From the NCBI GenBank assembly GCA_012837425.1, contig DURE01000040.1, positions 15,099-79,098 of the forward strand: a stretch of DNA of 64,000 nt. Direction: 5' to 3'. A program made the position numbers and the translations under genes. Shown piece after piece: positions 48,728-51,763 of this stretch. The DNA comes from Clostridiales bacterium (GTDB lineage: Bacteria > Bacillota > Clostridia > Oscillospirales > CAG-272). Position 1 is the first letter of the stretch. Each line of letters starts with the position of its first letter. The notes under the pieces were generated by a model, which was given only the letters and a program-made list of their open reading frames with translations, had not been told where the DNA came from and did not search any database.

Positions 48728-48804
48728 GCGGCGTTAGCTCAGTTGGATAGAGTGATTGGCTACGAACCAATAGGCCAGGGGTTCGAGTCCCTTACGCCGC
48801 GCCA
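48728..48804 (+). tRNA. tRNA-Arg (anticodon ACG), CCA encoded
   Basis: Folded manually. Acceptor GCGGCGT/ACGCCGC, D stem GCTC/GAGT, anticodon stem ATTGG/CCAAT with loop CTACGAA, T stem AGGGG/CCCTT with loop TTCGAGT, discriminator G, then CCA. Confidence 0.9.
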
Positions 48805-48847
48805 AGAGCCCTGTCAACCGCTTTTAGCGGCTGGCAGGGCTCTTTTT
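48805..48847 (+). terminator. Rho-independent terminator after tRNA-Arg
   Basis: AGAGCCCTGTCAACCGC-tttta-GCGGCTGGCAGGGCTCT followed by TTTT. Confidence 0.8.
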
Positions 48848-48875
48848 ATGAGGGTGTTTTGCAGCGGCAGGCTTA

Positions 48876-51623
48876 TTACTCGGGTGTGCTGACCTGCGCG
48901 GCTATGAAGGCCTTTAAGGCCTCCGCTATCCCGGCTGCTGCAGACAACACCGCCGGGTCGGGCGAGGTGTGGGCACCTATCGCTGCGAGCAGCCCGAGTA
49001 GCCGTGTCCGGTCGGTCTCAACCTGCCGGGCATAGTCGGGGATGTAGTCGACAACCGCCCGCACACCGAGCGGCGACGGCAGGTATTCTCTCGATACCCC
49101 GTCGTATATGACAAGCTCCTCGTCTCCGCCGGTCGCAACCCGGTAGGAGTCCGGCTCGCTTATGTCTGTAATCTCGGCCTCGGCCCTCTCGTAGTAAACG
49201 GTAAGGCTGCTGACCTCCCTTGAAAGTGTCAGTGTGTTCCCCGTAATGCTTCCGATGTCCCCCTCGGCGCAGAGATAGGCCGTCCCGGATTTTGCTCCGG
49301 CAAGGGCTACCGCCCCGCCGGCAGGTCCGCTTATTGTCTGGGAGGCAACTTTCCGGCAGAGCCTCCGGTTCTCAAGGTCAAGCAGGTCGGCGACCCCGCT
49401 TGGCAGCCGGCTTAGCTCGTAATTCTGCGACAGGCAGAGCTCCGAAACAAACTGGTTGTCGGCCGTGCCACAACTCCTGATCCCGCCGACTGATGCATTG
49501 TGCAGTCCCCGCCCGTGATATACATCGCCGAGCAGCCTGTCAAGCTCGGCTACCGTGAAGTCCTTGAGCCCGAGTTGTGTCAGGTCATACACGGCAAAGC
49601 TGCCTGTCTTAATTACATCGGGCATAAGCTCAAGCGAGACGGTAATTTCAGCCCCGTTTGCCGGCGAGCCTGAAACCGAGCCGGTTATGCCGTAATCCGA
49701 CAGCTCAACCTTGGTGCCGTCCTCGAATGTCCAGCCAACACCGCTGACGTATGTAAACACATAGTCTCCGCGCCTGGCCGCGGAGCCGAGCGCGCCGGCA
49801 AATTCAGCGGCGTTTACCGAAATGTCCGAAAGCCCGGTCTTGCCTGAGGCGGCAAGTAAGGCTGTGGCCTCCTTTGCAAATGGATATGTGAACCTGACCG
49901 TGATGGTCGAGCCCTGGCGCGCCTGCTCTGTTGAGCCCGGTTTCCAGGCTGAAATTATGCCGAAATCTGCCGGTTCCACGCCCGGATGGCCGCTTGTGTG
50001 GCGCCACTCGTAGTTGTTGTAGACAAAGGTATAATCCCCGCTTGAAGCCGGGGAGTGAGCCTTTATGCGGCGGGAGAATCTCTCGGCGTCAACCGACGCC
50101 CAGCCCACCTCCCCTGTGTAGGATATGCTTGCCGTCACCCGGCGCAGGTCCCGTACACCGACGCGGCCGAGACCGGTTTCGGTAGCGTCAAAGCTGCCGC
50201 TCACGCGCTGCCAGTCGTTTAAGCCGGCGCTGCCCAACTCCTGTTCGGCACCGCCGGCACCGGCAAACAGAATTATGCCGGAGGCGGGTGCCGGGCTCTT
50301 TATTTTGGCGCTGACATAATACCTGCGACCGGATATGAAGTTGAAAGCTCTCGACACCTGAGCCGGTTCCTCCTGGGCAGAGGACTCCTCCACCACCCGG
50401 ACAACAAACGCGGCAATTTCGTCATAATAATCGGGGTCGTCAAACACCCTGACAGTCGTCGTCCCGATAGCAAGGCCGCAAAGCTCCCAGCCCTCGCCCG
50501 AGGACAGTTCGGTGACACTTATAATTTCGGGGTTGTCGGCCACGCAGGTCTGCATGCTCGTGTCGTAGCCGTCAAGCCCGACAGTTTGCCCGACCTCAAG
50601 TGTGTAATCGGCCTCGGCTCCTGCGCTCTTCTCAGGAATATTAGGGGTGAGCGAGCAGACATTATCCTCAGCCAGCGCAGTTCCGCCCGACACCTCCCAG
50701 CCGGTCATATCGGTAAAATTGCCGTTTTCAAGCAGTTGGACCACGCTCATGCCGGATATGCTCCTTACCCGGGCAAATGCCAGCTCGCACTCGCGCTCGC
50801 CCCCGGCACTTTTGCGGCACAACAGTATACTATCGGTCACAATCCGGCGCGCTGGGCTGAGGTTTTTGGCAAAGCCGGCTACAAGCCCCGCGCATTCGCC
50901 CGAGAGCGGGGCATATTGCAAGTCGTGGTTGTGCACTGAGGGGGCATAGCTTGAGTCGTGATTGTGCCCGGCCGGGGCGTATGTACCGCTGTGATTATGT
51001 GAGGCATCTGCCTTTCCGGCAAGGGCGGCATACACTCCGCCCGAGGTGATGCCCCTTGTACTTCCGGTTATCGGTGTGCTGTCAAGTACGGGTTTATTTT
51101 TAATGTAGTCGCAGGCAGAGCTGTCGGTCTGCGCCCAGTCGGGCTGAACGTTTGCCTGTGCCCCGCACTCAATGCCGGCAAGCTTTAGCCTCTCGGCGTC
51201 GGTATAGTCATTTGAGGACAACCCCATGCCCGGAACCGCTTCGATCTTGCTCTCAAGCATTCCCATAATCTGCGAAAACTGGCTCGGAGTCGGAGCAAGC
51301 GCGGTGTTTTCAACAGGCACGCTGGTCTCAAGCACGCGGATAAGCCCCTCGGCGGTTATGAGCACCTTTTCGTCTTTATATCCGCTGACTACGAATTTGG
51401 TGGTTCCGCTGCAGCTCATGACCTCAGCCGGTATGCAGAAGGGCTCACCGGTATAAATTATTGCTACCGGGTCGCCCTCGGGGGGATAAAAGCTGACAGA
51501 TACCGCCAGCCCCTCCCACTCACGGCTCAGCTCAAAATCAAGCTGCTCAATGCCGTAGCTGCCTTTGGTTCCGGCCACAAATCTCCCCGGAACCAGGACG
51601 TAATTATCAACCTTAATTATCAC
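48876..51623 (-). CDS. Phage tail-fibre / receptor-binding-like protein, orphan
   Basis: 915 aa with a GTG start and RBS GAAGG. N-terminal BppU-like beta domain. Tail-fibre motif SSNDYTDAERLKLAGIE...PDWAQTD. Three HxH triads SHNHSGTYAPAGHNHDSSYAPSVHNHD. A Big_2-like segment. No signal peptide. Confidence 0.6.
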   Translation of the reverse strand: MIIKVDNYVLVPGRFVAGTKGSYGIEQLDFELSREWEGLAVSVSFYPPEGDPVAIIYTGEPFCIPAEVMSCSGTTKFVVSGYKDEKVLITAEGLIRVLETSVPVENTALAPTPSQFSQIMGMLESKIEAVPGMGLSSNDYTDAERLKLAGIECGAQANVQPDWAQTDSSACDYIKNKPVLDSTPITGSTRGITSGGVYAALAGKADASHNHSGTYAPAGHNHDSSYAPSVHNHDLQYAPLSGECAGLVAGFAKNLSPARRIVTDSILLCRKSAGGERECELAFARVRSISGMSVVQLLENGNFTDMTGWEVSGGTALAEDNVCSLTPNIPEKSAGAEADYTLEVGQTVGLDGYDTSMQTCVADNPEIISVTELSSGEGWELCGLAIGTTTVRVFDDPDYYDEIAAFVVRVVEESSAQEEPAQVSRAFNFISGRRYYVSAKIKSPAPASGIILFAGAGGAEQELGSAGLNDWQRVSGSFDATETGLGRVGVRDLRRVTASISYTGEVGWASVDAERFSRRIKAHSPASSGDYTFVYNNYEWRHTSGHPGVEPADFGIISAWKPGSTEQARQGSTITVRFTYPFAKEATALLAASGKTGLSDISVNAAEFAGALGSAARRGDYVFTYVSGVGWTFEDGTKVELSDYGITGSVSGSPANGAEITVSLELMPDVIKTGSFAVYDLTQLGLKDFTVAELDRLLGDVYHGRGLHNASVGGIRSCGTADNQFVSELCLSQNYELSRLPSGVADLLDLENRRLCRKVASQTISGPAGGAVALAGAKSGTAYLCAEGDIGSITGNTLTLSREVSSLTVYYERAEAEITDISEPDSYRVATGGDEELVIYDGVSREYLPSPLGVRAVVDYIPDYARQVETDRTRLLGLLAAIGAHTSPDPAVLSAAAGIAEALKAFIAAQVSTPE

Positions 51624-51709
51624 TTGAGCCTTCTTTCAGGCGCTATTTGTTATCCCGGTAGAATTATAATACCCTAATGCCGGCCTGTGGCTGACAGGTT
51701 TCCGTCAGT

Positions 51710-51763
51710 GCAAAAGGGCGGGGCGGAGGCCCACAAAAAACGGGGGCAGGGCCCCCGCAAAAT
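51710..51763 (+). repeat. Intergenic hairpin repeat family, copy E (partial); doubles as terminator of the oxidoreductase gene
   Basis: GGGCGGGGCGGAGGCCCACA...GGGGGCAGGGCCCCCGCAAAA parallels the GGGGCGGAGTCCCACA...GGGGGCAGAGCCCCTGCA part of the family. On the minus strand the GGGGGC/GCCCCC hairpin is followed by TTTTTT. Confidence 0.5.

Follow-up and report, generated by a model that had tools for sequence, protein, structure and literature searches.

Several described systems resemble the one considered here. In Rhodobacter capsulatus, a member of a different phylum, the siphovirus-like gene transfer agent (GTA) known as RcGTA has its tail fibers, head spikes and lysis genes away from the main cluster under the joint control of a dedicated activator, and all of its loci answer to GafA. 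The subject of the present analysis is a gene for a phage tail-fiber-like protein of 915 amino acids (aa) that stands alone in a 64,000-nucleotide (nt) stretch of DNA from an uncultured Clostridiales bacterium (assembly GCA_012837425.1, contig DURE01000040.1, positions 15,099 to 79,098; hereafter the window, and its genome G000). A further point of comparison is FpGTA of Faecalibacterium prausnitzii, whose head operon encodes TerS, TerL, portal, scaffold and major capsid protein, and whose tail fiber, receptor-binding protein, holin and endolysin lie in a separate operon (Borodovich et al., Nat Commun 2026, PMC12946183). G000 resembles this case in what appears to be a podovirus-like capsid system domesticated by a Gram-positive anaerobe, in the gene content of its head operon (on contig C31) and in the placement of fiber and holin genes elsewhere. 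The two-operon architecture of FpGTA is a precedent in favor of a link between our fiber and a capsid. The two cases differ in that the accessory genes of G000 are split into a lone fiber locus and a lone holin-pair locus with one common promoter type, that neither a baseplate gene nor a co-regulated endolysin was found in G000, and that its fiber has a BppU-type anchor.

Two other comparisons concern the parts of the system. In phages TP901-1 and 80alpha, the N-terminal part of BppU (residues 1-122) or its counterpart forms, together with a trimeric helical linker, a conserved module that anchors fibers or receptor-binding proteins to Dit or the tail-tube ring (PMC7291167). BppU of TP901-1 and FibU/FibL of 80alpha share with our protein an N-terminal beta-sandwich of ~120 aa followed by a helical linker, which in our protein is putative, and are its closest structural matches (4v96, 6v8i), whereas the fiber of G000 has no match to Pfam BppU_N, is unrelated in the rest of its length, is encoded alone on the chromosome, and comes from a genome in which no Dit was found. 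Moreover, the holin-dependent release of proteins without a signal peptide is established (TcdE-type export, type 10 secretion system; PMC9527704, PMC10847048). There, as here, a phage-derived holin occurs without a phage, along with a large cytoplasmic cargo that lacks a signal peptide; however, that cargo is a toxin or enzyme whose gene is usually adjacent, while here it would be a particle-anchoring fiber, and distant loci are linked by a promoter.

With moderate confidence, we suggest that the gene encodes a domesticated phage fiber serving as the attachment part of a dispersed GTA-like particle system comparable to FpGTA. The evidence comes from selection on the fiber gene, a promoter that it has in common with a holin pair, the fold of its N-terminal domain, and a conserved head and packaging operon elsewhere in the genome.

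Selection on the fiber gene

Full-length relatives of the fiber form six clusters among 5.8 billion proteins, and all belong to a single genus of uncultured 'Eubacteriales/Clostridiales' represented by metagenome-assembled genomes (MAGs). The gene is intact in eight of the 11 genomes of this genus and was found in none of 26 other genera (first sample). Its orthologs share 30-77% identity, the ratio of nonsynonymous to synonymous divergence (dN/dS) is 0.12-0.25 in all regions, and the N-terminal domain (hereafter N-domain) is the most conserved region, with dN/dS of 0.05-0.20. Divergence of the fiber tracks that of the syntenic neighbor genes. In every genome the fiber gene stands alone among chromosomal genes, synteny is conserved, and phage genes occur at none of these loci; the apparent ancestral order is GFO/IDH/MocA oxidoreductase, fiber, AP_endonuc_2 and PGM/PMM, beside serpin and capsule-kinase genes. 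We conclude that the fiber gene is vertically inherited and kept under selection, and that it is not phage debris.

A first-pass annotation of the window had proposed that the gene could be the last remnant of a decayed prophage. In the sense of non-functional decay, this proposal does not hold, given frames that are intact across species down to 30% identity, purifying selection and a conserved promoter; furthermore, comparison of related genomes at the fiber locus revealed no complete prophage there. The decaying-prophage class was likewise rejected on the grounds that selection is not relaxed, the open reading frames (ORFs) are intact, and neither an att-like repeat nor an integrase scar is present. 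A PF00589 integrase on contig C49, the sole match to that family, was discarded as a prophage marker, as it is Xer-like and lies among housekeeping genes.

It would be tempting to regard the gene as a neutral leftover of an ancient prophage without any present function, since the gene derives from a phage, stands alone and has been lost from three genomes of the genus. We consider this highly improbable. A frame of 2.7 kb has stayed open where synonymous divergence (dS) is saturated, dN/dS is low in all regions as described above, and the promoter is conserved at the nucleotide level in nine orthologs. Nor can recent transfer of one sequence account for the intact frames, as it is excluded by the range of identities among the orthologs.

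Base composition was also considered. It had been remarked that the gene looks GC-richer than its neighbors, and its GC content of 0.59 indeed exceeds that of the flanks (0.50-0.56), but GC at third codon positions (GC3, 0.676) equals the genome median. The excess of GC thus comes from amino-acid composition and not from foreign origin, and a foreign base composition of the gene is ruled out.

A promoter common to the fiber gene and a holin pair

The fiber ORF has its own promoter and ribosome-binding site (RBS), because a terminator closes the oxidoreductase gene upstream of it (Table 1); the gene was thus correctly described at the outset as having its own start signals. The promoter is laid out as a CTGWCA-N6-TGTCAG operator at a weak -35 region, 15-17 nt, a TATAAT box that is often extended, 6-7 nt, CGGGATAACAnAAAGCGC and the RBS, and transcription would be expected to start at the G of CGGGATAAC. 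The upstream regions of all fiber orthologs are conserved at the nucleotide level although coding dS is saturated. The full signature (CTGWCA-N6-TGTCAG, TATAAT and the leader CGGGATAACA) occurs in exactly two copies in the 1.85-Mb genome. When a profile was built from the fiber promoters of other species only, it detected two sites in the genome, one before the fiber gene (E 2e-13) and, at E 6e-9, one before a holin pair on contig C19. With R1, a model made from 20 promoters, two sites are found in each genome that has the fiber and one in each genome without it. Outside the genus, the promoter precedes the same holin pair in two genera, and in genome G063 it precedes a gene with the same N-domain and a different distal part; it is also present in one gut-metagenome contig.

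The 75-aa holin of the pair matches phrog_297 at 5e-8, and relatives of its transmembrane (TM)-coiled-coil partner adjoin amidase endolysins in phages (IMG/VR). These matches were obtained by profile and IMG/VR searches, as tblastn of both proteins against sequenced phages returned almost nothing. None of the 11 genomes of the genus lacks the holin pair or its promoter. The pair lies between an AMP-ligase gene and dnaA in G000, G003, G004 and G006; the AMP-ligase side is also present in G009, where the locus ends before dnaA, and in G020 the pair abuts a spoIIIA-like operon.

Several candidate origins and regulators of the promoter were rejected. For a phage origin, IMG/VR was scanned twice for the exact pattern and viral loci were searched with the model, and no match was obtained. 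A sporulation sigma promoter was likewise set aside, as the -10 box is of the sigma-A type and inspection showed no fit to the patterns of sigma-E, -K, -F, -G or -H. An XRE-S24 repressor encoded on contig C6 was considered as the operator-binding regulator, but its wide distribution in the family does not depend on the presence of the promoter, so it offers no specific link. The operator bears some likeness to CtsR heptads or to the Pho box of E. coli, from which it differs in its spacing to the -10 box.

Two further observations were made in passing. The repressor region (C6:3774-7635) encodes an XRE helix-turn-helix and S24-peptidase regulator (CI/LexA-like) downstream of gpr-spoIIP, with orthologs of at least 57% identity widespread in the family, and in G009 this slot after spoIIP is taken by the fiber gene. 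At C9:6285-6440 there are two more CTGACA-N6-TGTCAG palindromes, one of them perfect, without a -10 box or leader; their position is within or upstream of an ORF with no assigned function, which is followed by a cas5c-like gene (type I-C CRISPR-Cas).

The gene neighborhoods raise the question of sporulation. The fiber could be a BclA-like appendage of the spore surface, with anchor, variable stalk and trimeric head, made in the mother cell, which the holin pair would then lyse. The genome has gpr and spoIIP, the fiber gene of G009 directly follows gpr-spoIIP, and the holin pair of G020 sits at the spoIIIA-like operon; moreover, mother-cell proteins need no signal peptide, and the stalk varies in length among species. 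Nevertheless, we think this explanation quite improbable. The -10 box, often extended, is of the sigma-A type and shows neither a sigma-E nor a sigma-K signature, only two of ~20 contexts have sporulation genes adjacent, the module is limited to a few genera while sporulation is widespread, and the N-domain has the fold of a phage baseplate protein.

Domains and predicted structure of the fiber protein

The N-domain was modeled by AlphaFold2 (AF2) from an alignment that included viral homologs, with a predicted local distance difference test score (pLDDT) >90 for residues 1-100 and a following helix (residues 113-128) predicted at low confidence. Foldseek places it with phage baseplate fibers, the matches being TP901-1 BppU (4v96), the 80alpha baseplate fibers (6v8i) and the NF5 baseplate (E 5e-5 to 4e-4, prob 1.0), with template-modeling scores of 0.45-0.52 (4v96 BppU chains; 6v8i and 9m8o baseplate chains). 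The BppU-like N-terminal domain proposed in the first-pass annotation is hence supported by its fold, though not by Pfam: in a scan at E ≤ 1, BppU_N was not matched by the protein, and a weak Big_3 match at residues 630-666 was the only result. More generally, the whole protein gave nothing above the Pfam threshold, weak tail matches in PHROGs, and an empty result in a sequence search of the PDB.

The N-domain is widely used by phages. In BFVD, 134 viral proteins match it at E ≤ 1e-3, annotated as BppU-domain, baseplate or tail-fiber proteins. A profile search of 1.84 billion proteins found it in 1,843 clusters, always N-terminal, with partners 97-1,471 aa long, and in IMG/VR contigs it occupies the fiber position, after the tape measure protein, Dit and Tal or before the endolysin. 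It also matches phrog_19695, whose annotation is without function (E 2.6e-5).

Such an anchor without a phage might act as a decoy. Infection would induce the regulon, the BppU-type domain would fill the baseplate sites of an incoming siphophage and yield defective progeny, and the holin would lyse the cell early. The N-domain is the module by which siphophages mount fibers on Dit, no Dit was detected in the genome itself, and a tightly controlled holin is a plausible suicide effector. Even so, we rate this anti-phage explanation as very unlikely. The gene has been inherited vertically in a syntenic position that shows no trace of a defense island (a search of the PADLOC library was not made), scans of viral contigs did not detect the operator, and selection on the distal part is purifying and shows no sign of being diversifying.

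The stalk contains the SNDYTDAERLKLAGIE...PDWAQTD motif (residues 136-167) and three HxH triads (residues 208-233, nt 50925-51002, with an 11-residue period), both as first read from the translation. It has short matches to a cyanophage tail fiber, mycobacteriophage minor tail proteins and PHROG tail families. According to the orthologue alignment, the stalk is absent in four species, and the number of HxH repeats is 3, 5 or ~13 (P0007) in others. Fibers with iron-binding HxH repeats have been described (PMC11705849, PMC6116203); the array here fits the pattern of repeated His-x-His in fiber stalks and may bind metal. We also note that the recorded start of homolog P0007 (L002:9971-10000) lies 30 nt too far downstream, as the frame extends upstream as MITIKVENYT, which fits the N-terminus of the family and is preceded by a good RBS.

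The distal ~680 aa can be aligned across the genus at identities down to ~30%. AF2 suggests a jelly-roll resembling a carbohydrate-binding module (CBM) with a beta insert (~296-495), two tandem alpha/beta modules of ~85 aa (residues 497-666, window 49626-50135, pLDDT ~70-87), to which no family was assigned, a beta domain at residues 740-850 and, at the C-terminus, a conserved helix (864-912). Foldseek gave weak matches of the distal part to CBM6/CBM4 modules (prob 0.84-0.99), and an NGNF...W signature fits; since the full-length AF2 model is poor (pLDDT 50), these CBM matches serve as a weak hint alone. A Big_2-like module had also been proposed, in place of which we find the weak Big_3 match mentioned above and a beta-rich insert modeled with moderate confidence. 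No toxin or enzyme domain was detected in Pfam, PHROG and Foldseek searches, and inspection of the N-terminus showed no segment resembling a signal peptide, in agreement with the earlier reading.

A head and packaging operon elsewhere in the genome

It had been noted that no other phage gene accompanies the fiber. While this is true of the fiber neighborhood, the genome has a compact head and packaging operon on contig C31. Its genes run in the order TerS-like, TerL, 571-aa virion protein, portal, 243-aa ORF, major head protein and 131-aa ORF. The TerS-like gene has a weak GP3_package match, TerL matches phrog_979 (5e-43), the portal is of the P22/SU10 type (5e-30), the 243-aa ORF is scaffold-like, and the major head protein (1e-51) is of the Phage_capsid_4 family. 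Genes for replication, lysogeny or integrase are missing from the operon. A first set of hallmark families (PF04984, PF10145, PF05065, PF03354, PF05709, PF04860) was negative throughout the genome; the C31 TerL was found via PF03237, and the head proteins belong to the P22/SU10-portal and Phage_capsid_4 families, which lie outside that set. A search of the genome for tailocin or GTA clusters revealed a head and packaging operon, but not the contractile-sheath family.

The operon is conserved. The TerS-like gene and the major head protein are present in all 11 genomes of the genus, the latter at 73-92% identity and also in 23 of 60 other genera. Every genome with a detected fiber/holin promoter has the major head protein, including all four outside the genus; because these genomes are related and not independent, the co-occurrence is supportive only.

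A link between fiber, holin and head can be best illustrated by another genus of the family. In genome G072 (L092, G072:C1:27200-36900), a chromosomal cluster with secG and RNase R upstream comprises, in order, TerS-like, TerL, a 714-aa fiber, a holin, further genes, a major head protein, further genes and a portal. The 714-aa fiber carries the N-domain, the holin matches phrog_199 (6e-23), TerL is 45% identical to that of G000 (E 3e-134), and the major head protein belongs to a different PHROG family. This cluster is the clearest indication we have, and suggests, that such fibers and the holin belong functionally with a packaging and head module. The source genus may have a set like that of G072 dispersed over three loci, with G072 perhaps being the undispersed form.

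Another possibility would be that no particle is involved, the fiber and the holin pair being a two-operon module complete in itself. The holin, with or without lysis, would release a trimeric, lectin-like fiber that lacks a signal peptide and serves as adhesin, receptor mask or bacteriocin-like binder, and the capsid operon would be unrelated. In line with this idea, the promoter is common to the fiber and holin loci only, the head operon lacking it, and holin-dependent release of cargo without a signal peptide has precedents (PMC9527704, PMC10847048). Nevertheless, the best-conserved region of the fiber is the particle-anchoring N-domain, for which a free lectin would have no need, the fiber and holin of G072 are embedded in the TerL-head-portal cluster, and no toxin or enzyme domain was detected. 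We regard release of the fiber without a particle as unlikely.

A proposed dispersed GTA-like system

We return to the suggestion that the fiber belongs to a dispersed GTA-like particle. The BppU-type N-domain with its helical linker, predicted to trimerize, would plug the fiber into a phage particle, the optional HxH/NDYT stalk would set its length, and the distal ~680 aa with their CBM-like modules would recognize a cell-surface glycan. The host would run a phage-derived gene set over three chromosomal loci, namely the fiber, the lysis pair on C19 and the head operon on C31. The common promoter, which has no proper -35 region and may depend on its operator, would switch on fiber synthesis and membrane permeabilization or lysis together, and the three loci would jointly build and release a GTA-like particle that uses the fiber to attach to its host. 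Domain folds, selection, synteny, the common promoter and the conserved head operon are observed; from these it is inferred that the fiber would be mounted on that particle, and that the particle would be made and would package DNA.

Several points weigh against this reading. The three genomes of the genus without the fiber still have the head operon and the holin pair, and most genera of the family with the major head protein lack this fiber type, so the fiber is an optional part at best. The holin pair is isolated, and no co-regulated endolysin was found. BppU-type domains dock on Dit or tail-tube rings of siphophages, but searches of the genome detected neither PF05709 (Sipho_tail/Dit) nor PF10145 (tape measure) nor PF04984 (contractile sheath), and the head looks podovirus-like; likewise, no baseplate gene was identified in the genome, and proteins of the phage tail modules that carry the N-domain have no relatives there. 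Finally, the C31 operon is not preceded by the fiber/holin promoter. In all 11 species its own promoter consists instead of four TGKCAC direct repeats, one every 10 bp, followed by a T-run, then by a -10 box (TAAAAT/TATATC) and finally by TCGGCACA. While the loci of RcGTA have one activator in common, the head operon array here differs from the fiber/holin promoter. The array lies at ~C31:3490-3580 and at the orthologous sites in L082-L091, and in G000 it also resembles a terminator hairpin. It resembles the fiber/holin promoter in design (TGTCA-core repeats and no -35 region) and differs in sequence; a common regulator is putative. The first-pass annotation had raised the possibility that a domesticated fiber serves in trans a GTA-like particle whose genes lie in another part of the genome. 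This idea is now the preferred one: the C31 operon exists and is conserved, and the relative G072 has a fiber with the N-domain and a holin inside such a cluster, but the link between fiber and capsid is circumstantial.

We speculate further that a dedicated factor reading TGTCA-core repeats would switch on the fiber, the holin pair and, through the sister array, the head operon, giving rise to a functional GTA with a podovirus-type head and a BppU-anchored, siphovirus-type fiber in uncultured spore-forming Clostridia of anaerobic digesters and guts. This extension is tentative, and we would sooner expect it to fail than to hold in full. To our knowledge, such a chimeric architecture has not been described for any GTA. 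Compared with systems like FpGTA, the new elements would be the dispersed architecture, the promoter that tags fiber and holin, and the pairing of a BppU-anchored fiber with a podovirus-like head.

Lone chromosomal tail-fiber genes are usually dismissed as prophage debris, whereas the one described here is under selection and has a regulon partner. Should the three loci act jointly, a further family of uncultured Clostridia would be added to the bacteria with GTA-like DNA exchange, and a siphovirus-type anchoring module would have been reused on a podovirus-looking particle. The common promoter could then serve as a sequence tag for scattered parts of the system in MAGs where gene-cluster searches fail. 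Moreover, the defined operator offers a handle for finding the regulator that decides when a subpopulation lyses.

Feature coordinates and neighboring elements

The features of the fiber locus are collected in Table 1, along with the two loci outside the window. The stretch 48728-51763 to which the first-pass annotation referred corresponds to the fiber ORF plus the tRNA and promoter region.

Table 1. Positions of the fiber gene, its parts and its neighbors in the window, and of the holin pair and head operon on other contigs
Feature	Position	Strand	Basis and remarks
Fiber-like gene	48876..51623	-	915-aa ORF, GTG start, stop codon included; ORF list, translation, orthologs, dN/dS
N-terminal anchor domain, residues 1-128	51240..51623	-	Beta-sandwich 1-100 and helix 113-128, BppU-Nt-like
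Stalk, residues 129-239	50907..51239	-	NDYT/KLAGIE and QPDW motifs, then three HxH repeats
Distal part, residues 240-915	48879..50906	-	AF2 with moderate confidence at 340-670 and 740-850; genus-wide alignment
Operator CTGACG-GAAACC-TGTCAG, two CTGWCA-type half-sites	51691..51708	-	Kept in all promoters of fiber orthologs and holin pairs
Weak -35-like GCCACA	51685-51690	-	Abuts operator
-10 box TATAAT	51663..51668	-	T47, A48 and T52 are invariant columns in 20 promoters
Conserved leader / start region CGGGATAACAAATAGCGCC	51639..51657	-	GGGAT invariant in 20 promoters, 11 species, 2 loci
Ribosome-binding site GAAAGAAGG	51629..51637	-	5 nt before GTG start; conserved in orthologs
Terminator of GFO/IDH/MocA oxidoreductase gene	51740..51758	-	Terminator scan; separates oxidoreductase gene from fiber promoter
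tRNA-Arg(ACG)	48728..48804	+	ARAGORN; hairpin terminator 48806-48850; neighbor only, outside the system
Phage lysis pair, 83-aa TM-coiled-coil protein and 75-aa holin	C19:17715-18286	-	Under fiber-type promoter, just upstream of dnaA
Compact 7.3-kb podovirus-like head/packaging operon	C31:3584-10906 (locus L080:585-7907)		Outside the window; flanked by ordinary genes

The tRNA-Arg(ACG) gene is the sole tRNA of the window according to ARAGORN, and its convergent arrangement with the fiber ORF is evident from the coordinates of both. As previously stated, its 3' end has no second copy in the window, even with up to three mismatches allowed. The earlier framing of the locus around this tRNA as a possible att site is not borne out by relatives: the tRNA adjoins the fiber gene only in G000 and its nearest relative G003, no att-like repeat is present, and tRNA-Arg was therefore rejected as an integration site. 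Its adjacency to the fiber gene is incidental.

In the ~130 bp between the oxidoreductase terminator and the fiber promoter, two relatives (L018/L019, in G003 and G004) carry an extra insert that is rich in GC and hairpins (GGGGCTCTGCCCCACACCCC...GGGAGAAACTTCTTGAAAGAAGTTTCTCCC...). This insert is absent from G000 and may be a small intergenic repeat element.

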